From the sequence record PP534475.1: 64,000 nucleotides of DNA; one strand, 5' to 3'. Shown here one piece after another: positions 3-36,455 of this stretch. Position numbers and translations under genes: made by a program. The notes under the pieces are model-generated. The model was given only the letters and a program-made list of their open reading frames with translations, searched no databases and was not told the origin of the DNA. Position 1 is the stretch's first letter; every line of letters starts with the position of its first letter. Source of the stretch: Escherichia phage YJin-2024a.

Positions 3-90
3 TGGTGGGGAAAGATGGAGTCGAACCACCCGAGTCGCAATGACAACTGATTTACAGTCAGCTCTGCTACCACTTACAGAATATTTCCCC
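3..90 (-). tRNA. tRNA-Tyr (anticodon GTA), class II with long variable arm
   Basis: Reverse complement folds with acceptor GGGGAAA/TTTCCCC, anticodon stem GCTGA/TCAGT, loop CTGTAAA, T-arm GGTGG-TTCGACT-CCATC, encoded CCA; resembles E. coli tRNA-Tyr from memory. Confidence 0.7.
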
Positions 91-221
91 ATATTTAGAA
101 GTATTCAAAAAATTCTAATTTAAACACTTTTAAATATGTTTCCAAATTAGATAACTATTATACCAAGTTTTAAGGCACTGAGCAAGTCAAATTTTAAAGA
201 ACTTGCTCAGTGCTGTATTAG

Positions 222-497
222 TTAGTCGAACTTAGGAGCGACAGTTAAGGAGAACGGAAGTTCGAAAACTTCTTCGCCCTCATCACTAACAGTAATTACA
301 CGACCTTTAAGTTCAGACATTGAAATATCAATATCAGCTTTTGCATCTGGAGCCATGCCAGCTTCAACACATTTAGCTTTAATTTCCGGCAGAAGTTCTA
401 CATCGTAGAAATAAAGCCATTCAATCTCACCTTCCCAGCCTTCCCAGGATTTACAGATTGCACTTTCAATACCAGTTGCTATAACACGATTTTGCAT
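222..497 (-). CDS. hypothetical protein
   Basis: 91-aa ORF downstream of a T5-type early promoter (approx 505-540, minus strand). Confidence 0.45.
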   Translation of the reverse strand: MQNRVIATGIESAICKSWEGWEGEIEWLYFYDVELLPEIKAKCVEAGMAPDAKADIDISMSELKGRVITVSDEGEEVFELPFSLTVAPKFD

Positions 498-587
498 TCG
501 TTAACTCCTTCATCAATTTATATAACTATTATACCAGAAATTTAAAGCAAAAGGCAAGTACATTTTTAAAAATTCTGTTTGGAGGAG

Positions 588-794
588 CTAAACTCCAGAT
601 TCTTCAGCCAAGTCTAGACTAATAAGAGATATAGCCATAATTGCCGCTCCATGTTCTTTTTCTCCAGTCTCTTTAGCTAGAGTTATAATGTCAAGAAATT
701 GCTTATGAAAATCTGCAACCTCTTGAGTTATACCTGCCTCAGCAATCATACCTTTAAGCATGAAACGTTGTGCGGTAATTTCAGGATTAGCCAT
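588..794 (-). CDS. hypothetical protein
   Basis: 68-aa ORF; start overlaps stop of upstream small ORF (ATGGCTAA). Confidence 0.45.
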   Translation of the reverse strand: MANPEITAQRFMLKGMIAEAGITQEVADFHKQFLDIITLAKETGEKEHGAAIMAISLISLDLAEESGV

Positions 795-954
795 GTTGTT
801 TCTCCAGTTTCATCTTTAATAGTCTACAAATAAAATCAATGTCTTCATCCGTGCCTAGATCTCTATCTTCAAGAGTTGCCTTGAAGTTTTTAGTCAATTC
901 CATAAGGATGACTTCCCTAGAACGACGTGTTGGCGGAGGTGGATGTCTATACAT
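787..954 (-). CDS. small Pro-rich hypothetical protein (55 aa)
   Basis: ORF below track threshold; stop overlaps the next start, suggesting translational coupling. Confidence 0.3.
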   Translation of the reverse strand: MYRHPPPPTRRSREVILMELTKNFKATLEDRDLGTDEDIDFICRLLKMKLEKQHG

Positions 955-969
955 CTTATTTCCTTAATT

Positions 970-1046
970 TGGTAGGGGTGGTGGGATTCGAACCCACAAA
1001 ACCTGAATTTTAAGTCCAGTACCTATGCCAATTCGATTACACCCCC
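970..1046 (-). tRNA. tRNA, probable anticodon TAA (identity uncertain)
   Basis: Acceptor GGGGGTG/CACCCCT, anticodon stem CTGGA/TTCAG with loop CTTAAAA, T-arm GTGGG-TTCGAAT-CCCAC, encoded CCA; D-stem pairs poorly and variable arm is short for Leu. Confidence 0.5.
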
Positions 1047-1147
1047 GTGTAATCAGTTTATTAGTTGATACATATTATAGCCTAGTGAAAATCCTACTAC
1101 TAGTCCCACAAACCAACCAATATAATAATCTTTTAGTTTCACAGGTA

Positions 1148-1333
1148 TTATCCTCGTTCAATATCTAGGGAAATACCACAGTTAGGATTAATACCTGTAC
1201 CACTGCAATTTGGGCAAACCCAGATATTGCAAAAAGTATCTCCTGCTTCTGCATCAGAACTTTCACCAATTCCCCTACACTCAGGGCAGACACATTCTTC
1301 TAGCTCTTGCTTGAGTTCTTGAAACTTAGACAT
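1148..1333 (-). CDS. small Cys-rich zinc-ribbon protein
   Basis: 61 aa with CPEC..CNIWVCPNC..C spacing typical of a zinc ribbon. Confidence 0.45.
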   Translation of the reverse strand: MSKFQELKQELEECVCPECRGIGESSDAEAGDTFCNIWVCPNCSGTGINPNCGISLDIERG

Positions 1334-1341
1334 ATAGTCTC

Positions 1342-1743
1342 CTAATTAAGTTTTTCAAAACGACCTAGAGAATCTCTAGTCATCTTATTTAAGATTTTTC
1401 CCATATTCTGCTTTCTTGTGAATAATTCTAGGTTAGGTAAAGCATTATTAGACTTATCATCATCTTTGTGCTCTATTTCATAGCCTTCCGGTATTTCACC
1501 GTTGAAAGCCATCCATACGAGTCTGTGCACATATTCATTTTTACCTAGTCCCTTATTGCAAATTTTCACCTGAAAATATCCAGATTTACCATTGCAACGT
1601 GGAGATAATACCTTTCCTTTTATAGTTCTAGTGTACTCGCTATATTGATTTCGTTGTGTTATTATTCTATCCTTAGTTTCTATTGTACCATTTAAGTGTA
1701 CAATTAAAATAACACCAAAGTACTCAAATTCAACCTTTTCCAT
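1342..1743 (-). CDS. HNH homing endonuclease
   Basis: HRLVW...IEHKDDDKSNNALPNLELFTRKQN matches the HNH motif; sits inside the tRNA cluster. Confidence 0.6.
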   Translation of the reverse strand: MEKVEFEYFGVILIVHLNGTIETKDRIITQRNQYSEYTRTIKGKVLSPRCNGKSGYFQVKICNKGLGKNEYVHRLVWMAFNGEIPEGYEIEHKDDDKSNNALPNLELFTRKQNMGKILNKMTRDSLGRFEKLN

Positions 1744-1757
1744 ACGTAATACCTAAT

Positions 1758-1832
1758 TGGTGGGTCGGAGGAGAATCTAACTCCTACTCATTAGCTTATG
1801 AGGCCACCGCTTTAACTTTAAGCTACCGACCC
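1758..1832 (-). tRNA. tRNA-like RNA with non-canonical anticodon arm
   Basis: Good acceptor GGGTCGG/CCGACCC, D-arm GCTT-AAAGTTA-AAGC, T-arm AGGAG-TTAGATT-CTCCT and CCA, but the only stable stem in the anticodon region (CTCAT/ATGAG) encloses a 6-nt loop. Confidence 0.4.
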
Positions 1833-1838
1833 TATGTT

Positions 1839-1932
1839 TGGAGGAAGATGCCAGACTCGAACTGGCACACCGTGTTTCCACAGTTACTGGCTGTTTAGCA
1901 AACAGCTCCCTTACCTTTAGGGTTAATCTTCC
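1839..1932 (-). tRNA. tRNA-Ser (anticodon GCT), class II
   Basis: Acceptor GGAAGAT/ATCTTCC, anticodon stem GCTGT/ACAGC with loop TTGCTAA, long variable arm, T-arm GCCAG-TTCGAGT-CTGGC. Confidence 0.65.
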
Positions 1933-1953
1933 AAATTTATAAGATATATTATA

Positions 1954-2466
1954 TTAGAAATTTAGCTTCATAGCAAGAAAATTTTTCAAGTTTTCGGTAG
2001 ACATCTCATCCACATCTATAGGAGAAACAAAGCCGTTTAATTTTCTAGCAAATTTTTCACCTGCAGGGTCATTATCCCCGACAGCTACCAATTTAAAAGG
2101 TAGTAATTTCAGTTGCTTTAATAACGCAACTGCCTTAAATACAGATTCAGCAATCAATACTACTTTTTCATCTCCATTGAGAGTTTCTAGTCCCCATACA
2201 CACTGGGTAGTAGAATGAGTAAAGTATTTAGCTTCAAAGGGGCACTTACCATGACCTTTTGGAGCAGAAGGATTATAAGTTTGATAGCCCCTCAACATCC
2301 CAGAGAAGTCATATAACGGGACTGTTAGCCATCCTTCCGGACTTAACCAGCAATGATATTTATCTGTATCAAATCCTCTAGATAAGAGGTGCTGTGTTAG
2401 CTCATCAACATTCATATTTGGTTCCTCTCTCAAATTTATAGATATATTATACAGAGAATTTAGCAT
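1954..2466 (-). CDS. hypothetical protein with Toprim-like motifs
   Basis: VVLIAESVFKA ... VAVGDNDPAGEKFARKL resembles the Toprim E and DxD signature. Confidence 0.4.
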   Translation of the reverse strand: MLNSLYNISINLREEPNMNVDELTQHLLSRGFDTDKYHCWLSPEGWLTVPLYDFSGMLRGYQTYNPSAPKGHGKCPFEAKYFTHSTTQCVWGLETLNGDEKVVLIAESVFKAVALLKQLKLLPFKLVAVGDNDPAGEKFARKLNGFVSPIDVDEMSTENLKNFLAMKLNF

Positions 2467-2590
2467 TCAAGCAATCAAATTTTTTAACTTTTTAGAGAAA
2501 AATCATAGGGCACTTAAGGATAGCAGATAAGTGGTGAGGACCAAAATTTGTGACCCCACTAAAAATCCGGGGGTAATTTTTAAAGACCCC

Positions 2591-2619
2591 TTGACATTTT
2601 CGCTGGGGTAGTGTAAAGT
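2591..2619 (+). promoter_or_regulatory. sigma70-type promoter TTGACA-17-TAAAGT
   Basis: Consensus -35, 17-nt spacer, near-consensus -10; AGGAGG RBS 8 nt before ATG at 2682. Confidence 0.6.
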
Positions 2620-2681
2620 ATATGTTATGGATGAGTGATCAAAGAGACACACATTTTCTATATACTAGGAGGTGTCAAAAA

Positions 2682-3674
2682 ATGACAGAAGAAGTAGCTA
2701 AGAGTCCTGAGACCGTCGCTAGCGTTGCAGCAGAACTGCACCGTCACGAGGAATCAGATAAGAAAAAGTGGGAGAAGGTCAGAGCCTACGAAGAGAAACA
2801 TCGTGAACACGATGAAGATGATGAAGAAGATGACGATGATGAGTATTGTCATAAATATGGAAAACGTAAAATGCAAGAACCAGTAAACGTATTCACTAGT
2901 GGCTTCCCTGGCCTAATGGGTGGTTACCCAGCAAACGCAGGTGCTTTCGGTGGTGAAGGTATGGGACTATTCGGAGCTATCCTAATCGGTGCTCTATTAA
3001 CAGGCGGATTCGGTGGTTTCGGTGGATTCGGTGGACGTGGTGTAGTTGGTGAAGGTACCGCAGTTGATGCAGTACTTCAGAACCAAGATACCGCTAGTAT
3101 TCTAGCAGCTATTAACACTACTCGTACAGAGGCTAACCAGGGTACTGGAGCTGTTTTAAGCGCAGTTAATAATGGTTTTAGCCAGACATCCCAAAACCAG
3201 AGCCGTGATACTCAGTCTGTACTAACTACGATCTATGGTACAGGTGCTAATCTGTCTAATCAGATCTGCCAGGAAACTCGCAACGTTATTCAGGGTCAGT
3301 TCGATCTTTCTCGCCAGATTGATCAAGCTTTCGCAGCTAATCAGATAGCTCGTGCACAAGATAAGTTTGATTCTGCACAGATCGCTTTCCAGCAGACTTT
3401 ACAAACTAATAACCAGTTTGCCGCTGTTCAGGCTCAGATGTGTGCTAACCAGAACTCTCTGGAACGTCAGATCGCTGAATGTTGCTGTGAACTTCAGACT
3501 GCGATTGCTGGTGTAACTACTGCGCGTATCCAGGATGAGTTAGACGCGTGTCGTCTACGTGAAGCAATCGCTGCGGGTAGCGGTGCTAACGGTCAGGTAA
3601 TTAATCAAATCGCTTTAAGTCTTGGTGCTATCACTCAGACTCTGGCTGGTCTGCAGGCTAAACTGCCGGCTTAA
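2682..3674 (+). CDS. membrane protein: acidic N-terminus, glycine-zipper segment, Gln/Asn/Thr-rich Cys-containing C-terminus
   Basis: Start moved to ATG 2682 because of the RBS; GGFGGFGGFGG hydrophobic Gly-zipper; DEDDEEDDDDE acidic tract; no recognisable family. Confidence 0.6.
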   Translation: MTEEVAKSPETVASVAAELHRHEESDKKKWEKVRAYEEKHREHDEDDEEDDDDEYCHKYGKRKMQEPVNVFTSGFPGLMGGYPANAGAFGGEGMGLFGAILIGALLTGGFGGFGGFGGRGVVGEGTAVDAVLQNQDTASILAAINTTRTEANQGTGAVLSAVNNGFSQTSQNQSRDTQSVLTTIYGTGANLSNQICQETRNVIQGQFDLSRQIDQAFAANQIARAQDKFDSAQIAFQQTLQTNNQFAAVQAQMCANQNSLERQIAECCCELQTAIAGVTTARIQDELDACRLREAIAAGSGANGQVINQIALSLGAITQTLAGLQAKLPA

Positions 3675-3695
3675 TATTAAGGGGAGGAGCCCATT

Positions 3696-4112
3696 ATGAG
3701 TAAATATGGTTTTGTAAATAACGGACTTAATCAAAGTATGGGCTCCCAGCAGCCCGTTCCGGGTCTGGATAACCCCTACTTACAACAGTTGCAACAGCGT
3801 TTAGCAGAAGCGCAACAGATGCAGCAACAACTCCAGCAAAACCCTGGAAGTGTAAGTCCTATGCAAATGATGCAGCAAATGAGCGGGCAGTCGCAAATGC
3901 CTCAACAAATGCAGCAACAGATGCCGCAGCAGCAAGTTCAGCAACAAACCCAACAACCGCAGGTTTCTGCGGAGGGACAGGCAGTACTAGCCCTTTTCGA
4001 AGACTTCGCAAAGACAGAGGATGGGAAACAGCTTGTATCACTTATGGGTAAGTTTAATAGCTTCTGCCAAAGCCAAGTTGCAAAAGCTCAAAATGGTGGT
4101 AATAACTCCTAA
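3696..4112 (+). CDS. Gln-rich low-complexity protein
   Basis: 138 aa with PQQMQQQMPQQQVQQQTQQPQ tract; GGAGG RBS upstream. Confidence 0.55.
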   Translation: MSKYGFVNNGLNQSMGSQQPVPGLDNPYLQQLQQRLAEAQQMQQQLQQNPGSVSPMQMMQQMSGQSQMPQQMQQQMPQQQVQQQTQQPQVSAEGQAVLALFEDFAKTEDGKQLVSLMGKFNSFCQSQVAKAQNGGNNS

Positions 4113-4121
4113 GGAGAAATT

Positions 4122-4316
4122 ATGTGTTGCAGAAAATCTGTTTCGTGCTGCCCAATGCCTGTAGCACGTTGTTGCTCTCCAGCAATGTTTACGCAAATAC
4201 CGGCGTTCAATCCGTTTGCCTTTAAGCCTACTCTTATCCTGCCCCCTAGAGTAGATTTTCAGTCAAGATTGGCCTCCCGTATGGGTGGTTGCTGTACACC
4301 GAGAGTGTGGTTCTAA
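4122..4316 (+). CDS. small Cys-rich hypothetical protein
   Basis: 64 aa with several CC pairs; last ORF before the terminator; may not be coding. Confidence 0.3.
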   Translation: MCCRKSVSCCPMPVARCCSPAMFTQIPAFNPFAFKPTLILPPRVDFQSRLASRMGGCCTPRVWF

Positions 4317-4329
4317 ACCAAAAACAAAA

Positions 4330-4362
4330 GCCCCTGCCGAAAGGTAAGGGGCTTTTTCTTTT
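4330..4362 (+). terminator. intrinsic terminator
   Basis: GCCCCT...AGGGGC hairpin with inner GAAA loop followed by TTTTTCTTTT. Confidence 0.7.
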
Positions 4363-4365
4363 GCC

Positions 4366-4408
4366 TTAAATACAGAAAAGCCCTGCGCTCTCCAGGAAAC
4401 GCAGGGCT
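4366..4408 (-). terminator. intrinsic terminator for the convergent SPFH gene
   Basis: 8-bp GC-rich hairpin GCCCTGCG/CGCAGGGC followed on the minus strand by TTTTCTGTATTT. Confidence 0.65.
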
Positions 4409-4432
4409 TACTTCAGATGTTACATGCGGGTA

Positions 4433-5380
4433 TTATTTATTACGCATATCCATAATCATTTGGCCATCGTAACCAGTTCCCACTACTGTTTGCGGTACAC
4501 CACCTTGGTATTTCTGAGCACGAATCATTTCGACTTCCAGTTGTTTCCAACGAATCATCTCAGGAGTAATGGTACGTTGCAGTGCGGCGTTAGCTTCAGC
4601 TTCTTTCTTAGCTGCATACAGTTTAGCATCTGCATCACGTTCGTTAGCAATAGCTTGGTTATTACGAGCTTCGCGATCTGCTTCTGCTTGTTTAACCTTC
4701 TGCTGTGCTTCTTGTTCAACACGAGCCAACTCAGCTTTTGCAGCATTAACTTGCTCTTCACGAACTTTGGTATTCTGTACCTGTTCCATGATTACTGGAG
4801 GCAGAGTAATATCCTGAAGGAATACCTGCTTAACTGTGTAACCATATGGGCGTGCATACTCTTCAACTTCTTGTTGAATTGCAGTTTGCAATTGAGCCTG
4901 AATTTTAGCATCAAACAAATCTTGTGCTTTAGGTACAGACTTACCAAACTCACGAATAGTAGACAGTAATTTTTCAGTTACATACTTGTCTAGCGCCTGA
5001 TCCTGAGTACCTGCGTTAATGCGGTTAATCGGTGCCTTAGAACCATCAAACTGCAACATAACAGTCAGGTCAACAGTGGATTTAAACTTATCCTGACTAG
5101 GAACCTGAAGTTTATCTAATTTTAGAGCAATATCTTTAGTACTAAAAGTATCGAAAGAAGCAAAAGGATTTACAATATGAAAGCCGGGTAATACTGGGCT
5201 AGGGTCAACTTTACCCAGGAAAGTCTGGGTTTTAACAGTACCGTCTTGAACAACAGTATAGGAGTTAAGGGCCAGAACTAAACCTACCAAACCAACTGCA
5301 GCACCAATACCCCAACGTTTGATATTACGCATCAATTTTTGCTCATAAGTCAGTTCTTTAGTGTTTTTAGTAGCAAACAT
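4433..5380 (-). CDS. SPFH/band-7 (prohibitin/HflKC-like) membrane protein
   Basis: N-terminal TM helix, SPFH-like core, long Ala/Glu/Gln-rich coiled coil (AKAELARVEQEAQQKVKQAEADREARNNQ). Confidence 0.65.
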   Translation of the reverse strand: MFATKNTKELTYEQKLMRNIKRWGIGAAVGLVGLVLALNSYTVVQDGTVKTQTFLGKVDPSPVLPGFHIVNPFASFDTFSTKDIALKLDKLQVPSQDKFKSTVDLTVMLQFDGSKAPINRINAGTQDQALDKYVTEKLLSTIREFGKSVPKAQDLFDAKIQAQLQTAIQQEVEEYARPYGYTVKQVFLQDITLPPVIMEQVQNTKVREEQVNAAKAELARVEQEAQQKVKQAEADREARNNQAIANERDADAKLYAAKKEAEANAALQRTITPEMIRWKQLEVEMIRAQKYQGGVPQTVVGTGYDGQMIMDMRNK

Positions 5381-5414
5381 ATATTTCCTTTGTTTTAGTT
5401 ACAGTTAATAAAAT

Positions 5415-5489
5415 TGGCCGAGGTGACAGGATTCGAACCTGCATAAAGGAATTTAGAAGACTCCTGCCTCTCCCTTAGACTACACCCCG
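5415..5489 (-). tRNA. tRNA-Arg (anticodon TCT)
   Basis: Acceptor CGGGGTG/CACCTCG, D-arm GTCT-AAGGGAG-AGGC, anticodon stem GGAGT/ATTCC with loop CTTCTAA, T-arm GCAGG-TTCGAAT-CCTGT, CCA. Confidence 0.7.
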
Positions 5490-10954: not shown

Positions 10955-11030
10955 TATTTGTTTTCCTTTTTTGTTTATCAATTTATGAAGTATATTATAC
11001 GAGAATTTGAAGCGTTTAGCAAATGAATTT

Positions 11031-30912: not shown

Positions 30913-31221
30913 ATGAGCGAACAGGTAAATCAAAACTATGAAGGACACGTTGATGACCAGTCCATCATACTTTGGGAGAAGGAGGGAGAACAAGTAAGAT
31001 TAACAGTATCTGAATTTCGTGGGAATCTATACATGGGTATTCGTTACTGGCTTCTTGATATTAATGATGAATGGTTTCCAACGAAATCTGGCTTCTCTTT
31101 TCCTTACACCCTAGAAACAACATCACAGCTTTTCTATGCGTTTACACAGATTCTTAGCGAATCTGAGGTTTTACATGAAGTACAGAAACGAGCTGAAGAA
31201 CTCAAAGCCAAGAATGCCTAG
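30913..31221 (+). CDS. PC4/YdbC-like ssDNA-binding protein
   Basis: RLTVSEFRGNLYMGIRYW...WFPTKSGFSFP matches the PC4 fold motif. Confidence 0.55.
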   Translation: MSEQVNQNYEGHVDDQSIILWEKEGEQVRLTVSEFRGNLYMGIRYWLLDINDEWFPTKSGFSFPYTLETTSQLFYAFTQILSESEVLHEVQKRAEELKAKNA

Positions 31222-31239
31222 TTCTTGGCTTTTTCTTTA
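31207..31239 (+). terminator. intrinsic terminator
   Basis: GCCAAGAA/TTCTTGGC hairpin containing the stop codon, then TTTTTCTTTAT. Confidence 0.65.
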
Positions 31240-31248
31240 TAAATGTAT

Positions 31249-31277
31249 TTGCTTTCAACTCAGTTTTGTTATATAAT
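31249..31277 (+). promoter_or_regulatory. T5-type early promoter TTGCTT-17-TATAAT
   Basis: Consensus hexamers upstream of the ligase N-terminal gene. Confidence 0.65.
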
Positions 31278-31308
31278 ATTTATATAAATTGATGAGAGAT
31301 ATAAATAA

Positions 31309-32280
31309 ATGACTAATGTAAAAGAATTTATTAAACGCTGTCAAGAAGCATATTATCAAGGCATGTCTTTAATCTCTGATGAGGAATATGATCGTCTTAT
31401 TAAAAGATTCCCACTAGAGGAAGAGATCGGGCCTAAGGGCGATATTCCACATCTATATCGTATGTATTCTTTACAGAAAGTTTATTATAATCGTGGAGAT
31501 AAGCCCCCATTTAACCCATTAGGTCAGGTAGAAACTGATAAGTTAGATGGTTGTGCGATTTCTCTGTTATATATTAATGGCGAATTTGTTCAAGCACTAA
31601 CTCGTGGTAATGGCATTCTAGGGAATGATGTCACAAGCAACGTAAGACTGCTGAACATCCCTAAAAAGATTTCCCAAAAAGTACCTACTCAAATCACTGG
31701 TGAAGTTCTAATTACAAAAGAAGTAGAAAATAAACGTAACTTTGCCTCTGGTGCTATTAACCTCAAAGATAGTGATGATTTCGTACAACGTATCGGAGAA
31801 GGTGGTTTAATCTTCGTCGCATATGGTATCCAGTGTTCTGCTGAATCTGTAGGTATTACAGAAACGTATTTAAAAGATATGCTTTGGCTAGAGAATGAGA
31901 ACTTCTTAACAGTTGTTAATGTGCGTTCCTTCTTTAAATGGATTCCGACGGATGGTAAAGTTGTTCGTATTAATGACAACAACAAATTCTTCCGAGAAGG
32001 CTGGACTAATAAATTCCCTCGTGGAGCATTCGCTATTAAAGAGGATGAAGAAGGCGAGATTACAACTCTTACTAAAGTTGAATGGCAGGTAGGGGCTTCT
32101 GGTAAAGTAACTCCAGTTGGTTATTTTGAACCGGTAATTATTGATGATGCTACAATTGTTAAAGCGACTCTTAATAACGTTGATTATATTAACTCTCTTG
32201 ATCTAGAGATCGGTTGCCAGATTCGAGTGATTCGTGCTGGTGGTGTAATCCCGTGCATAGTAGAGCGAGTATACGATTAA
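31309..32280 (+). CDS. NAD-dependent DNA ligase, N-terminal adenylation/OB part
   Basis: KxDG active-site motif ETDKLDGCAI; ends where the LigA zinc-finger region would start. Confidence 0.75.
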   Translation: MTNVKEFIKRCQEAYYQGMSLISDEEYDRLIKRFPLEEEIGPKGDIPHLYRMYSLQKVYYNRGDKPPFNPLGQVETDKLDGCAISLLYINGEFVQALTRGNGILGNDVTSNVRLLNIPKKISQKVPTQITGEVLITKEVENKRNFASGAINLKDSDDFVQRIGEGGLIFVAYGIQCSAESVGITETYLKDMLWLENENFLTVVNVRSFFKWIPTDGKVVRINDNNKFFREGWTNKFPRGAFAIKEDEEGEITTLTKVEWQVGASGKVTPVGYFEPVIIDDATIVKATLNNVDYINSLDLEIGCQIRVIRAGGVIPCIVERVYD

Positions 32281-32330
32281 TACATAACCCTTTGCTACCC
32301 ATCTACCATATCGGAATTATAAAGTGGTTA

Positions 32331-32359
32331 TTGACATTTTCGCCGCTTAGGTATATACT
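32331..32359 (+). promoter_or_regulatory. promoter TTGACA-17-TATACT inside the ligase gap
   Basis: Shares the 13-mer TTGACATTTTCGC with the promoter at 2591; only an 8-codon mini-ORF follows. Confidence 0.5.
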
Positions 32360-32423
32360 ATTATCATTCAGTTGAGGGATAGAAAGTTATGGCGAGGGTA
32401 AGCAAAGTTAGTTAAAATTGTGG

Positions 32424-32452
32424 TTGCTAAATGCTTAAATACTTGCTATAAT
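32424..32452 (+). promoter_or_regulatory. T5-type early promoter TTGCTA-17-TATAAT
   Basis: Followed by TATAAATTGATAAGGAAG leader and ATG 32483. Confidence 0.65.
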
Positions 32453-32482
32453 ATTTATATAAATTGATAAGGAAGAAATTTG

Positions 32483-33253
32483 ATGAAAATCGAAATTCCA
32501 ACACAATGTCCCTCTTGTGGTTCTAAGCTAGATCTTGTCAACGGACAATTATTCTGTCGGAATAAGTCCAACTGTCCAGCGCAATCAAGTAAGTTAATTG
32601 AGAACTTCTGTACAAAAATGAAGTTAAAGGGCTTTGGCCCAAAAACTATTGAGAAGCTGGAGCTGACGAAGATTTCAGAACTATTTTACCTAACCGAAGA
32701 AGATTTGGTTAGAGCCGTGGGTAGCAAGGTTGCCGCTAAGTTAATTAGCGAATTAAATACTAAAGTTCGCGGAGACATTGACTTTGGTTCAGTTCTCGGT
32801 TCTTTAGGAATCCCTCTAATTGGAGAGGTTGCAGCAAAGAAATTATCCCAAAATTGCACTAGCTTCCACGATGTGAAGGCTGACGGCAAGGCTGGAGAAA
32901 ATTATAAAGCCTGGCTAAATTCCCCACAAGGCAAGGATGTTATCGAACTGCCGTGGAAATTCTCAACTGGTGCTAAAGCTAAAACTGTCGTTACAGATGA
33001 ATTAGTTGCCCAGTCAAACGGAATCGCGGTATGTATTACCGGATCTTTGCAAGATTTTGCAAATAGAACGGATGCAACAAACTATTTAGAAAGTCTAGGG
33101 TATACGGTTAAGAAATCCGTTACTAAAGACGTCAAATACCTAATCTGTGAGGATGAATCAAAACGTTCTTCCTCATCTTATAAGAAAGCCGAAACGAATG
33201 GGATAGAAATCCTGTCGATTAAAGAACTATTGGAGAAAAATAATAATGTCTAA
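32483..33253 (+). CDS. NAD-dependent DNA ligase, C-terminal Zn-finger/HhH/BRCT part
   Basis: CPSCGSKLDLVNGQLFCRNKSNCPAQ is the LigA zinc-finger; start taken at ATG 32483. Confidence 0.75.
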   Translation: MKIEIPTQCPSCGSKLDLVNGQLFCRNKSNCPAQSSKLIENFCTKMKLKGFGPKTIEKLELTKISELFYLTEEDLVRAVGSKVAAKLISELNTKVRGDIDFGSVLGSLGIPLIGEVAAKKLSQNCTSFHDVKADGKAGENYKAWLNSPQGKDVIELPWKFSTGAKAKTVVTDELVAQSNGIAVCITGSLQDFANRTDATNYLESLGYTVKKSVTKDVKYLICEDESKRSSSSYKKAETNGIEILSIKELLEKNNNV

Positions 33254-34013
33254 ACTGAACTGGAACGTAGAAGGTGTAACCGAGTCTCTGAAAGCAAAAG
33301 CCACTGCTCTGGGTGTTGCTGTAATCTCTCAAGAACAAGTAGCTGCTATTGCTGCTGAACTGGCTACTGAAACTGGCAAAGATGTTACTGCTCGCTCTGT
33401 TGGCTCTAAACTGCGTAAAGAAGGTTTTGAAGTACAGAAAGCTAACGAAGTACAGAAATCCCCGTGGACTCCTGAGCAGGAAGCTGAACTGGTTGATTTC
33501 CTGAACGCTCATGCTGGTCAGTATACCTATGCTGAAATCGCTGCTGCTGTAGCTGGTGGTCAGTTCGGCGCTAAGCAGGTACAGGGTAAGATTCTGAGCC
33601 TGGAAATGACCGCTTCTGTTAAGCCAACTGAAAAAGCTGCTGCTGTTCGTTCCTTCACTCCGGATGAAGAAACTGATTTTGTTAATCAGGTTGTTGCTGG
33701 TGCTACTATTGAAGCTATCGCTGCTCACTTCGGTCGTAATATCAAGCAGATCCGTGGTAAAGCTCTGAGCCTGCTTCGTGAAGGTCGTATCGCTGCTATG
33801 CCGGTACAGGAAACTTCAAGTGCTAAAACTCGTGAAGATCTGTTAGAAGGTCTGGATCTGGTTAACATGACTGTTGCTGAGATCGCTGAGAAAACTGGTA
33901 AGTCTGAGCGCGGTGTTAAATCTATGCTGTCTCGTCGTGGTCTGGTTGCTAAGGACTATGATGGTGCCGCTAAGCGTGCTAAACTGGATGCAAAAGCTGC
34001 GGCTGCTGAATAA
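33246..34013 (+). CDS. abundant DNA-binding protein with three HTH-like repeats
   Basis: Three similar segments (YAEIAAAV..AKQVQGKILSLE / IEAIAAHFGRNIKQIRGKALSL / VAEIAEKTGKSERGVKSML); codon usage of a highly expressed gene. Confidence 0.45.
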   Translation: MSKLNWNVEGVTESLKAKATALGVAVISQEQVAAIAAELATETGKDVTARSVGSKLRKEGFEVQKANEVQKSPWTPEQEAELVDFLNAHAGQYTYAEIAAAVAGGQFGAKQVQGKILSLEMTASVKPTEKAAAVRSFTPDEETDFVNQVVAGATIEAIAAHFGRNIKQIRGKALSLLREGRIAAMPVQETSSAKTREDLLEGLDLVNMTVAEIAEKTGKSERGVKSMLSRRGLVAKDYDGAAKRAKLDAKAAAAE

Positions 34014-34095: not shown

Positions 34096-35568
34096 ATGAC
34101 CTTGTTTAACGTGCAAGCTGTAGTGTTGAAGATGCTTCTAGCTTCTGAACAGAAGCAAATAGCATTGGAAACATTCTCAAAACTGCATAAAGATCATTTT
34201 AATGACGCTTTCTCCTCAATTTACCAAGCCGTCCAGAATTATTATAAAAAATATAACACAATGCCGTCCATTGACGCACTTATGCTTGAAGCTAATAGGA
34301 ACGCCCGCCTTTCTCAAGCTCTAGTCGTCTTAGCTAACACTCAAATTCCAGAAGTGAGCATGGAACAGGCACTTGAAGTCCTAGAAGCCGAATATACACA
34401 GGATTTATTCCTGAAACTTCTAGAAACAGACGTGCTTCAAGATTTAACAATGCTGGATCAGGGAGAAATTCTCAACCGAGTTGCCTCCCTTCACTTAAAA
34501 TTAGAAGAGAAAGTAACGAATACTGGAAAAGTATTCAACGCAGATAACATGCGTATTTTCCAGAGAGAAGAAGATACCAAACTGAACTTAATCGCTCTTG
34601 GTATTTGTAATGAGTTCGACGCTCAAATTGGTTTAGCTCGCACAGAAACGTTACTGCTTGGTGGTTGGCGTGGTACTGGTAAATCCATTATCTGTTCAAA
34701 CATACAGGTTCAGCAATATTTGAATGGAGATATTGCTCCATACTTCTCAATTGAGATGAAAGAACATGAAGTATTTAGACGTAATCTAGCCATGTTAGCA
34801 GGTGTATCAGCACTAGCAATGCGTAATAATACTCTAGAAGGTGCAGCTCTGTTGAGATTAGCCAGAACTAGAGCTAGAATGTTTAATGGTGGTGAAGAGC
34901 TTTTCGATAGCTTTGTTAAACAGTACACAATGGCTAAGATGAGTGATTTCTACGATATGGAGAGTAAGCTAATAGAAGGGTATGAGCTACATACTCCTAT
35001 GATTATTGTTTATGACCCTGAGCTGTCTATTACAACAGTTGACGTAGAACTAAATAAATTAGTTGCTAGATATGGTGATAAAGTTACAGTAGCTTTACTG
35101 GACTATATTAACCAAACCCGACTTCCAGACTCTAAAACCATTGATATGTATGACTGGAAAGAACAGATGGTTGTTAGCTCGTCTTTCAAATCTATCTGCC
35201 AGAAACATAACGTGGCTGGTGTAGCTCCTTACCAGATAGATCAAGATGGTAGAACACGTATGTCAAAGGGGATTCTTGATTCCGCTGACATGGCTGCTAA
35301 TCTTAATGCTGCAAAAGCTGATAATGGTCAAGGTGCTATTATGTTTGACTTCGTTAAGACTCGTTCTTCTGATAGCGTGAAGTTTATGCCTAAAATGAAC
35401 TGGGAAACTCTGCGAATGGATAACACTACCAACCTAGCAATGGAAGATATATCTCAAATGGAAGCTGAGTTCGTTATCCCTATTGAGAAGGATAAGCCGG
35501 CTCAACCTAAACGTGCTAAGAAAGACAAAGCTGAAAATTCAACAGGTGAACAGGCCAGCGATATATGA
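34096..35568 (+). CDS. RecA-fold replicative helicase (DnaB-like)
   Basis: Walker A GGWRGTGKS, Walker B VALLDY; start moved to MTLFNV (RBS AAGGAG) because the track start lies inside the terminator. Confidence 0.65.
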   Translation: MTLFNVQAVVLKMLLASEQKQIALETFSKLHKDHFNDAFSSIYQAVQNYYKKYNTMPSIDALMLEANRNARLSQALVVLANTQIPEVSMEQALEVLEAEYTQDLFLKLLETDVLQDLTMLDQGEILNRVASLHLKLEEKVTNTGKVFNADNMRIFQREEDTKLNLIALGICNEFDAQIGLARTETLLLGGWRGTGKSIICSNIQVQQYLNGDIAPYFSIEMKEHEVFRRNLAMLAGVSALAMRNNTLEGAALLRLARTRARMFNGGEELFDSFVKQYTMAKMSDFYDMESKLIEGYELHTPMIIVYDPELSITTVDVELNKLVARYGDKVTVALLDYINQTRLPDSKTIDMYDWKEQMVVSSSFKSICQKHNVAGVAPYQIDQDGRTRMSKGILDSADMAANLNAAKADNGQGAIMFDFVKTRSSDSVKFMPKMNWETLRMDNTTNLAMEDISQMEAEFVIPIEKDKPAQPKRAKKDKAENSTGEQASDI

Positions 35569-36455
35569 GTAGAATAACAGAACTACTTGATCTGAAAGGC
35601 ATTGAATATAAAGACACAGGTGGGGACATCCTCATCTGTTGTCTCAATCCAGATCATGACGATAAACACCCAAGTTTGCGTATTGATCCTGAAACAGGTA
35701 TTATGCACTGCTTGAGTTGTGGCTTCGGTAAAGGTATACCGAGCATTTACCATTATTTTAATGAGACTCAGTACCGACAGTCCCCAAGACTATCGCAGGT
35801 ACGTAAAAAGATTTCAGAGATTAGGAATGGATCTACGAATCTTGCAATTCCTGAATCTGCTTACCTTTTCGAAGGTGATTTCCGAGGTATAAGTTCTAAG
35901 ACCTTGAAGAAATATTTTGCTTTCCAACACCAAGCAGATTGGGAAGGCAGAATTGTATTCCCAATCACAGATGCTGTTGGACGCAATATCCTATTTTTGG
36001 GTCGTTCTATAAACAGTTCTGCCCCTCCTAAATACTTAGTAAAACCAAAACAAGTTTCACCACCGATTTTTCCTGTACGATATAATACTCCAGTTCTTAT
36101 TCTAGTTGAAGGTATCTTTGATATGCTGAACCTAGAGGATAATGGTATAGACTATGCTTCTTGCTGCTTTGGTACACATCAGTTCACTTCAGATAACATT
36201 GCAGATAAGTTCAGTCCTTATATTATTGCTGGTGTAAAAGTTGTTGTTATCTTACTAGATAATGATGCTTCTGGTAATAAAGCTGCACAAGCATTGGCTA
36301 AGCTAATTCGTACAAAAACGCGTTTAATACCTGTAGTTGCTAACTTTCTCCTGCCTGAAGGCAAAGATCCAGGTGATTTAAACAAAGATGAAATTGATAT
36401 GTTAGCAAAACGTATTGAAATTTTAATTGCTGAATCGCTTAAAGATTTGGTATAA
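35565..36455 (+). CDS. DnaG-type DNA primase
   Basis: CHC2 zinc finger CCLNPDHDDKHPSLRIDPETGIMHCLSCG plus Toprim segment VLILVEG...LLDNDASG. Confidence 0.8.
   Translation: MSRITELLDLKGIEYKDTGGDILICCLNPDHDDKHPSLRIDPETGIMHCLSCGFGKGIPSIYHYFNETQYRQSPRLSQVRKKISEIRNGSTNLAIPESAYLFEGDFRGISSKTLKKYFAFQHQADWEGRIVFPITDAVGRNILFLGRSINSSAPPKYLVKPKQVSPPIFPVRYNTPVLILVEGIFDMLNLEDNGIDYASCCFGTHQFTSDNIADKFSPYIIAGVKVVVILLDNDASGNKAAQALAKLIRTKTRLIPVVANFLLPEGKDPGDLNKDEIDMLAKRIEILIAESLKDLV

Follow-up and report, generated by a model that had tools for sequence, protein, structure and literature searches.

A T5-type NAD+-dependent DNA ligase encoded in two genes on either side of a promoter-bearing spacer

An NAD+-dependent DNA ligase divided between two genes, ligA and ligB (T5p114/T5p115), was reported together with the T5 genome (Wang et al., 2005, Virology 332:45). 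An orthologous two-subunit enzyme, with the same split point and domains, occurs in Providencia phage PR1, for which Protein Data Bank entries 9HU3 and 9I5I (released 2026) contain both chains; the title of 9HU3 reads [quoted passage not shown] In E. coli LigA (2OWO), by contrast, the domain series Ia-NTase-OB-Zn-HhH-BRCT, with its KxDG motif and Cys4 finger, is carried by one 671-aa chain. Another replication-related enzyme gene present as two co-oriented ORFs whose products reassemble is nrdA of the T4-like phage Aeh1, which is reported to be split by mobE (PMC3045599, PMC2988022). Our literature search found no paper on 9HU3 or on the biochemistry of the T5 split ligase. The split ligase, the heterodimer structure (PR1), and both promoters discussed below are all already known, and as a discovery the locus described here adds little: it is real but ordinary.

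The window, that is, the whole 64,000-nucleotide stretch of Escherichia phage YJin-2024a DNA that we analyzed (PP534475.1), comes from a Tequintavirus (T5-like phage), and its best matches are ~98% identical. The ligA gene (31309..32280, + strand) encodes 323 aa with an Ia-like N-terminus, an adenylation domain (DNA_ligase_aden, PF01653, 6.5e-24 in Pfam) in whose translation the KxDG lysine motif reads K78-L-D-G81, and a subsequent OB fold (DNA_ligase_OB, PF03120, 3.8e-22, residues 252-321). The ligB gene (32483..33253, + strand) encodes 256 aa from its ATG, with a Cys4 Zn finger, HhH, and BRCT; the span of this second ORF can be given as 32480/32483-33253. In Pfam, BRCT scored above the cut-off (5.4e-8) and HHH_2 slightly under it (24.7 vs. 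27), and the Zn-finger cysteines C9/C12/C25/C31 are invariant in 52 homologs. Residues 214-320 of LigA align to residues 284-390 of 2OWO and residues 3-122 of LigB to residues 402-529, placing the break between about residue 393 of E. coli LigA, where the phage LigA ends, and about residue 400, where LigB begins. Together the two chains, 579 aa in total, cover 2OWO end to end, with about six linker residues unaccounted for. The sequence-only reading had described a ligase in two genes, cut between the OB fold and the Zn finger, and the Pfam domains and 2OWO alignments bear it out. The domain content is thus that of a NAD+-dependent ligase (LigA), but it is distributed over two ORFs 202 bp apart instead of a single polypeptide, and these ORFs are co-oriented, adjacent, and broken at the position characteristic of the T5-type heterodimeric ligase.

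Comparison with homologous ligase loci, which that reading had proposed, showed the split arrangement to be shared by T5, AKFV33, BF23, PR1, My1, and Klebsiella, Proteus, and Vibrio phages. T5 itself (AY692264) has the same genes in the same order and a gap of ~200 bp, with one mismatch in 209 aligned bases; it differs in that the T5 st0 record has an HNH-like ORF between the helicase and primase genes, which the window lacks. Upstream of ligA, a terminator-like hairpin (31204..31232, + strand; a 12-pair stem followed by a T-run) ends a PC4-like gene 5' of the ligA promoter, and the AKFV33 record annotates a terminator at the corresponding place. Downstream, a 255-aa gene (33246..34013, + strand), annotated in relatives as D5 or as a transcription factor, overlaps the ligB stop by 8 nt and, because of this overlap, is probably co-transcribed with ligB from the promoters in the gap.

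The assembly of the two halves is indicated for the PR1 orthologue by the title of the PDB entry. Chain A of 9HU3 matches the window's LigA (E 4e-104) and chain B its LigB (E 1e-82), both over the full length, and chain B is 100% identical to the LigB of PR1. In addition, an AlphaFold model of LigB (pLDDT 92.5) has 9hu3_B as its top PDB match and also matches 2OWO. By analogy with the PR1 pair, the LigA and LigB of the window phage would be expected to assemble in the same manner, the orthologues being ~55-60% identical in amino acid sequence. The PR1 locus also has two promoters in its gap, and it differs from the window in having a terminator predicted right past ligA.

The gap (32281-32482, 202 bp) consists of two unequal parts. 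Directly 3' of the ligA stop, alignment delimits a variable spacer of ~36 bp (32281..32316), which is the insertion point in relatives, while the last 166 bp are conserved and promoter-bearing. That the spacer carries two promoters had been recognized from the sequence alone, and both are found by our scan, conserved, and annotated in the gap of T5 st0. The first, P1 (32331..32359, + strand; TTGACA-17-TATACT, 11/12 matches), is identical in sequence to the T5 st0 feature P-K 28b (P-K28b). The second, P2 (32424..32452, + strand; TTGCTA-17-TATAAT, 10/12 matches), corresponds to P-K 28a (P-K28a) and has an upstream TG (extended -10), an A/T-rich UP-like tract on its 5' side, and the T5 early-type sequence (TATAATATT...ATAAATTGA). 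The AKFV33 and BF23 records likewise mark a promoter at the site of P2. The names P-K28a and P-K28b reportedly go back to Gentz and Bujard in the 1980s, and a literature search on them found nothing relevant. Downstream of P2, a Shine-Dalgarno-like AGGAAG (32470..32475, + strand), read from the sequence, lies 7 nt 5' of the ligB ATG. The ligA gene has a promoter of its own, P0 (31249..31277, + strand), identified by a regex match to the T5 early type as TTGCTT-17-TATAAT followed by ATTTATATAAATTGA; AKFV33 and BF23 list a promoter at this site, and T5 st0 labels it "putative promoter."

P1 and P2 are the top two sites of a 3-kb promoter scan, in which promoter-like sites were not in excess (6 vs. 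6.6 in shuffles), and we regard both as real because they are conserved, not because of their scan scores. The -35 and -10 of P1 are invariant, with a variable spacer, in 7-8 aligned sequences from several genera, and the same pattern of invariant hexamers and variable spacers holds for the promoters of 11 phages from at least seven genera. In 10 of these 11 phages, the -35 of P1 lies 148-155 nt and that of P2 54-60 nt 5' of the ligB ATG, the exception being My1 (-126 and -38); the spacing from P1 to P2 is constant at 88-96 nt. P2 is conserved in all genera examined, and a promoter stands directly 5' of ligB in every split locus examined. Within Epseptimavirus, the promoter module is 98.2% conserved vs. 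~90-93% for coding sequence.

The two promoters belong to different types. The T5 early class has a TTGCTn -35, a 17-18-nt spacer, and TATAAT followed by ATT, often with ATAAATTGA downstream; an "ATATT" discriminator element has been described for this class (Klimuk et al., 2020). The window contains 18 such sites, including P2 (32424) and the ligA promoter (31249). P1 falls outside the class, reading TATACTATTATC without the ATATT element, and shares its extended -35 and -10 (GTTATTGACA ... ATATACT) with the T5 late promoter P-J5. Both P1 and P2 are likely to fire in vivo, and the P-J5-like sequence of P1, lacking ATATT, suggests that its timing differs from that of P2.

Overall, the locus very probably represents the T5-family heterodimeric NAD+-dependent DNA ligase, derived from a ~560-aa ancestor by a cut in the linker between OB fold and Zn finger, with two assembling subunits and a spacer that serves as a promoter entry point. 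The ancestral compact LigA would have been cut in this short linker, so that LigA (nucleotidyltransferase and OB) and LigB (Zn finger, HhH, and BRCT) would be made as separate polypeptides and would come together on nicked DNA as a full LigA-like enzyme. The last 166 bp of the spacer would act as the site of transcription entry, with tandem sigma-70 promoters, P-K28b and then P-K28a, followed by the ribosome-binding site, and would provide separate transcription for ligB and for the next gene, which overlaps it translationally. With no terminator predicted anywhere in the gap of this phage, including the stretch between P1 and P2, transcripts started at the ligA promoter may also run on into these two genes.

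Compact fused ligases of the T5 type (~555-578 aa) are encoded by uncultivated T5-like phages. Both halves are homologous to the window's proteins, the LigB part being 33-41% identical and the N-terminal motifs T5-like, but the frame is continuous, a 10-15-aa linker joins the halves, and the junction has no promoter. Neighboring genes match in the two longest contigs, where the fused forms of 557 and 576 aa share the order ligase, ~240-aa gene, DnaB, primase, with a PC4-like gene 5' in one of them; two more fused forms (568 and 562 aa) are on shorter contigs. An IMG/VR scan with one fused protein (P0100) yielded no confirmed relative, and a neighbor-joining tree of 129 LigB regions is star-like, being as compatible with a single fission as with fused forms that arose by secondary fusion. 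Uncultivated split loci have a single promoter, 52-55 nt 5' of ligB. Minimal split loci contain only a promoter between the halves, and in one of them (L018) the -35 begins 4 nt past the ligA stop.

Tentatively, the promoter pair at the break could be an ancient unit of fixed geometry, present in at least seven Demerecviridae genera and combining a late-like P1 with an early P2. It is possible that the ligase came to be, or remained, divided because an interruption here supplies ligB and the D5-like regulator with separate early-plus-late transcription, and that homing endonucleases and small cargo genes later used the junction as a landing site.

An account that we consider unlikely takes the gap as the scar of a mobile element, in which a free-standing homing endonuclease gene broke an intact ligase gene and was later lost in most lineages. 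The Salmonella phages SP3 and RUS_R2 lend it support, as in both of them a 213-aa GIY-YIG gene sits precisely after the ligA stop and before the promoter module. The identity of SP3 ligA to the window, otherwise 95-100%, drops to 88, 70, and 69% in the last 240 nt beside this gene, which in sequence terms resembles a homing co-conversion tract. Other small genes occupy the same point in other lineages, including a 64-aa ORF just after the ligA stop in smaug/8sent65 and genes between the halves in Vibrio phages at the corresponding place, past ligA and ahead of the promoter module. In an all-vs.-all blastp, these small junction ORFs had matches only within their genera, apart from the DprA-like proteins found in Vibrio phages and My1. 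The existence of fused orthologues and the precedent of nrdA and mobE would also fit a scar. However, a GIY-YIG endonuclease is at the junction in only 3 of ~1100 records and looks like a recent arrival in a pre-existing spacer, and the minimal split loci hold a promoter alone. The likeness to Aeh1 extends to the free-standing endonuclease gene at the ligase junction of some relatives (SP3), but the ligase split is family-wide and old rather than strain-specific, and the new termini of the ligase show no added interaction peptides. Within the window's gap, there is neither an endonuclease gene, as homing-endonuclease "genes in pieces" would have, nor, in a variable stretch of 36 bp that is too short to be informative, any visible endonuclease remnant. 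The suggestion that the gap marks an excised element is not supported: the promoter-bearing 166 bp are a functional module conserved across the family and regulatory rather than endonuclease-derived.

It is less probable still that the chief role of P1 is to yield a short functional product encoded in the ~90 nt separating the two promoters, either an sRNA or a leader peptide regulating ligB and the downstream gene. The constant P1-P2 spacing is consistent with such a product, as are a purine-rich GAGGGA-like box past the P1 start in several genera and an inverted repeat (AGCAA...TTGCT) around the P2 UP/-35 region in several lineages. The P1 leader also folds beyond shuffles in the window (z -3.3 to -3.8) and in My1 (z -4.1), but z-scores in other genera are only -0.1 to -1.6, and RNAalifold returned zero consensus pairs for the leaders of six genera. 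We do not claim an RNA element here, as there are no consensus pairs and z is significant only in the window and My1. A permissive Rfam scan of 31100-33400 (E up to 5) gave two chance-level matches and no intron or sRNA family, and the lack of a predicted terminator between P1 and P2 likewise argues against a short transcript.

As for a leader peptide, the 8-codon mini-ORF noted earlier in the gap is present at 32389-32415 (+ strand; MARVSKVS, ATG GCG AGG GTA AGC AAA GTT AGT TAA), within the P1 leader, and the gap contains no longer ORF in the direction of the ligase genes. A tiny ORF opening with ATGGC occurs in both the window and PR1, but the 9-codon ORF at this place in PR1 is unrelated. 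In a Klebsiella phage, the start reads TTG for ATG and an early stop follows; the mini-ORF is deleted in My1 and absent in Brizo/Cody. With start codon, length, and sequence all unconserved, we rejected the mini-ORF as a leader peptide.

The 13-mer TTGACATTTTCGC of P1 had been taken as a sign of a repeated regulatory module. Its sharing with the promoter at 2591 is confirmed by two exact copies, at 2591 and 32331 (~0.16 matches expected by chance; two or more in 1 of 100 shuffles), and a search of the window gave no others. The idea of a module does not stand, since the likeness ends at the 13 bases, the flanks are unrelated, and the spacer part is variable in other genera. The genuinely recurrent promoter type is instead the T5 early one, to which P2 and the ligA promoter belong.

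Two explanations can be set aside. Rejoining of the ORFs, as polypeptide or as mRNA frame, by an intron, an intein, or translational bypass is effectively refuted: nothing favors it, Rfam gives no intron family and Pfam no intein/Hint family in either ORF, LigA stops right past the OB fold and LigB opens right at the Zn finger, the gap has promoters plus its own ribosome-binding site and ATG, and the chains are separate in the solved structure. A sequencing or assembly frameshift, or a decaying pseudogene, in place of a single real ORF would fit the a priori expectation of LigA as one polypeptide, but is refuted by a 202-bp gap with 5, 4, and 4 stop codons in the three frames and ligB in a different frame from ligA, by intact catalytic and Zn motifs in both halves, by two distinct crystallized chains (PDB 9HU3, PR1), and by the phage records. 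Matches to the region come from 444 T5-like phage records, and in 430 of these they span ≥80% of it; >400 genomes, each sequenced independently, carry this gap at ≥95% identity; and every Demerecviridae record in a spread sample (60 of 1161 matching phage records) matched in at least two pieces, down to 48% amino acid identity.

As a heterodimeric ligase with a promoter-bearing spacer, the locus is of value as a clean natural case of gene fission at a domain linker for which three states can be compared: fused, in uncultivated relatives; minimally split, with a promoter only; and expanded, with cargo genes or a homing endonuclease between the halves. This series is useful for asking what maintains a two-piece ligase in T5-like phages, how these phages deal with the nicks in their genomes, and how internal promoters shape phage operons.

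The NAD-dependent DNA ligase of this phage is encoded by two ORFs, ligA (31309-32280, plus strand, 323 aa) and ligB (32483-33253, plus strand, 256 aa counted from the ATG, which an in-frame TTG precedes at 32480). The sequence-only reading had assigned the adenylation/OB part to the first and the Zn-finger/HhH/BRCT part to the second, and this division is borne out: by Pfam, the first ORF carries the NAD-ligase adenylation and OB domains and the second has BRCT above threshold with HhH slightly below it, and the four Zn-finger cysteines of LigB are retained in every one of 52 aligned homologues. In alignments with the E. coli LigA structure (2OWO), residues 284-390 correspond to LigA residues 214-320 and residues 402-529 to LigB residues 3-122, so the break sits in the short linker that joins the OB fold to the Zn finger, with only ~6 residues unaccounted for and no domain lost. 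A sequencing frameshift hiding a single ORF can be dismissed, since every frame of the 202-bp gap (32281-32482) is interrupted by stop codons (5, 4 and 4) and ligB lies in a different frame from ligA, so that one continuous ORF could not be regained through any single frameshift. Separately, the record of Proteus phage VTCCBPA139 lists its ligA (801-1430 of its locus) as a hypothetical protein of 209 aa; tblastn matches this gene in three pieces, and the record probably contains a frameshift or sequencing error.

Matches to the ligase region came from 444 phage records, with a coverage of 80% or more in 430; all of these phages are T5-like (Tequintavirus and Epseptimavirus), and the top identity is 98.1%. 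In Salmonella phage L6jm (1608-1796 of its locus) a 62-aa ORF is inserted directly upstream of ligA and overlaps the ligA start; this insert explains why the match is ~180 bp longer in several records. Both ligA and ligB are among the T5 genes named in published papers. In PDB entries 9HU3 and 9I5I, chain A matches the window's LigA (E 4e-104) and chain B its LigB (E 1e-82), chain B being identical to LigB of Providencia phage PR1. Entry 9HU3, released in January 2026, is titled 'PR1 phage heterodimeric DNA ligase in complex with 21-mer nicked DNA containing phage nick sequence', which answers, for an orthologue, the earlier question of whether the two halves assemble.

The gap had been said to carry two consensus promoters, and these are the top two sites of a 3-kb consensus scan: P1 (TTGACA-17-TATACT, 32331-32359) and P2 (TTGCTA-17-TATAAT with an extended -10, 32424-32452). 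Promoter-like sites are not in excess in the scanned 3 kb, where their total is not above that of shuffled sequences. The T5 st0 GenBank record annotates 'promoter P-K 28b' and 'promoter P-K 28a' between ligA and ligB, and the T5 gap differs from that of the window by one base in 209; the two sites are thus the named T5 promoters P-K 28b and P-K 28a. We aligned gaps from Tequintavirus, Epseptimavirus, Klebsiella T5-like phages, Pectobacterium phage My1, Proteus phages and the Vibrio phages Brizo, Cody and D332, adding Providencia phage PR1 and a second Proteus phage for distance measurements. Across genera, the variable part is confined to the first ~36 bp past the ligA stop, beyond which 166 bp (about 32317-32482) are conserved as a module. 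The -35 elements of P1 and P2 lie 148-155 and 54-60 nt upstream of the ligB ATG, respectively, in 10 of 11 phages representing at least seven genera, with the promoters separated by 88-96 nt; the outlying distances in My1 (-126 and -38) are probably due to a ligB start annotated too far upstream. The hexamers are invariant among the aligned phages and the spacers variable, a pattern that would be expected of working promoters. In both Tequintavirus and Epseptimavirus, conservation of the module exceeds that of the coding sequence on either side (98.2% versus about 90-93% in Epseptimavirus). The window's gap has no predicted terminator, so ligB could also be transcribed from the ligA promoter; in PR1, by contrast, a terminator is annotated directly past ligA. 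Because ligB overlaps the next gene (255 aa, annotated in relatives as D5 or a transcription factor) by 8 nt, the gap promoters probably serve this gene as well. The P-K 28a/b promoters were reportedly isolated functionally by Gentz and Bujard in the 1980s.

The sequence-only reading further linked P1 to a repeated regulatory module, based on the 13-mer TTGACATTTTCGC. Both copies (2591 and 32331) were recovered, with no third within the window and no likeness between the two outside the 13 bases. The counterpart in other genera is TTGACATTTTCAT, TTGACATTTACGC, TTGACGTACACAT or TTGACAATTTTGG, indicating that the spacer half is unconstrained. Given 23 TTGACA sites in the window, the chance that some pair shares the next 7-mer is roughly 0.02; the repeat is unusual, yet no evidence for a module. 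The copy at 2591 (region 2540-2625) is flanked by inverted CCCC/GGGG runs, lies directly past a terminator-like hairpin (GACCCC...GGGGGT, then a T-run) and has TAAAGT as its would-be -10. Five tRNA genes (Tyr, Leu, Met, Ser and Arg; 3-5489, minus strand) represent the end of the T5-type tRNA cluster.

The regulatory module that is truly repeated is the T5 early promoter type, TTGCTn, 17 nt and TATAATAT, often followed by ATAAATTGA. It occurs at 18 sites within the window, including 11022, 57220 and 2474 (minus strand) and 40908 and 41008 (plus strand), of which those at 11022 and 57220 agree in sequence with the classic P-H207 and P-D/E20 promoters. Both P2 and the ligA promoter (31249) are of this type. 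According to a 2020 study, ATATT directly follows the -10 in all known T5 early promoters; this element is absent from P1 in the genera examined, and P1 is the sole TTGACA/TATACT-type site within the window. T5 P-J5, located upstream of the gene for the major tail protein and published as yielding late transcripts, has the same extended -35 and -10 as P1 (GTTATTGACA ... ATATACT). This resemblance raises the idea that P1 might be a late-type entry point.

The 8-codon mini-ORF noted in the gap (MARVSKVS, 32389-32415, plus strand) is present, though not conserved: a Klebsiella phage has TTG for ATG and an early stop, My1 has it deleted, Vibrio phages lack it, and the 9-codon ORF that PR1 carries at a similar position is a different one. 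For the predicted P1 leader (32366-32482), folding gives a long hairpin (-26.1 kcal/mol, z about -3.3) in which the region of the mini-ORF is paired with that of the P2 -10; z-scores elsewhere are weak and no consensus structure of the leader was found across genera. In several genera, AGCAA and TTGCT form an inverted repeat on either side of the P2 UP/-35 region.

The idea of a mobile element at this site, raised by the suggestion that the gap marks an excised one, is correct for some relatives; in the window itself no remnant is recognisable. The content directly past the ligA stop differs between phages. Salmonella phages SP3 and RUS_R2 carry a 213-aa GIY-YIG endonuclease gene there (in SP3, NC_048001, 1965-2606 of its locus). 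The SP3 ligA is 95-100% identical to that of the window and then 88, 70 and 69% over its last 240 nt, the low-identity end adjoining the endonuclease gene, and this drop resembles a homing co-conversion tract. With only 3 records carrying it, the endonuclease gene is too rare to have been a likely cause of the split seen across the family. An identical 64-aa ORF overlaps the ligA stop in the Epseptimaviruses smaug (1603-1797 of its locus) and 8sent65 (1765-1959), with no blastp match to other ORFs at or beside the ligase junction. Vibrio phages have two or three genes between the halves, in Brizo (2469-3687) and Cody (1769-2661) a DprA-like gene accompanied by one or two small ones; My1 has the DprA-like gene directly upstream of ligA instead (993-1505). 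Two uncultivated contigs have two small ORFs past the ligA stop.

A tblastn query of LigA and LigB joined matched 1161 phage records. Of 60 sampled across this set, records down to 48% amino acid identity all matched in at least two pieces and those at or below 29% in one, the multi-piece records all being T5-like or Demerecviridae, Vibrio phages included. When cluster representatives were searched with LigB, the 128 near-full-length proteins classified among the best 150 matches comprised about 100 stand-alone LigB clusters (~240-265 aa), 11 compact fused ligases (511-578 aa, 32-41% identity) and 11 long cellular-type ligases. Four fused genes (557-576 aa) were located on metagenome contigs of uncultivated phages, where they take the place of ligA and ligB. 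Gene order is T5-like on the two longest contigs, the ligase being followed by a ~240-aa gene, DnaB and primase; one of these contigs also has PolA beyond them, and the other has a PC4-like gene before the ligase. The two shorter contigs show less, one with a Phage_T5_A2 match upstream. Each of the four fused proteins has an uninterrupted linker of 10-15 aa, and no promoter lies at the domain junction of any of the four genes. Uncultivated split loci in a minimal state have a gap of about 60-75 nt and one promoter 52-55 nt upstream of ligB, its -35 in one case beginning four bases past the ligA stop. Taken with the cross-genus gaps, these loci leave a promoter directly upstream of ligB as the sole constant of the examined split loci. 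A neighbour-joining tree of LigB regions is star-like and does not give the number of fissions. In the window the primase gene (35565-36455) lies directly 3' of the helicase gene, whereas in T5 st0 the two are separated by an HNH-endonuclease-like ORF, T5p118.

Overall, the split ligase is confirmed, its earlier interpretation was right in part, and all essentials were already known. The additions are modest: tandem promoters conserved family-wide, a series of fused, minimal and expanded ligase loci, and an endonuclease at the junction.
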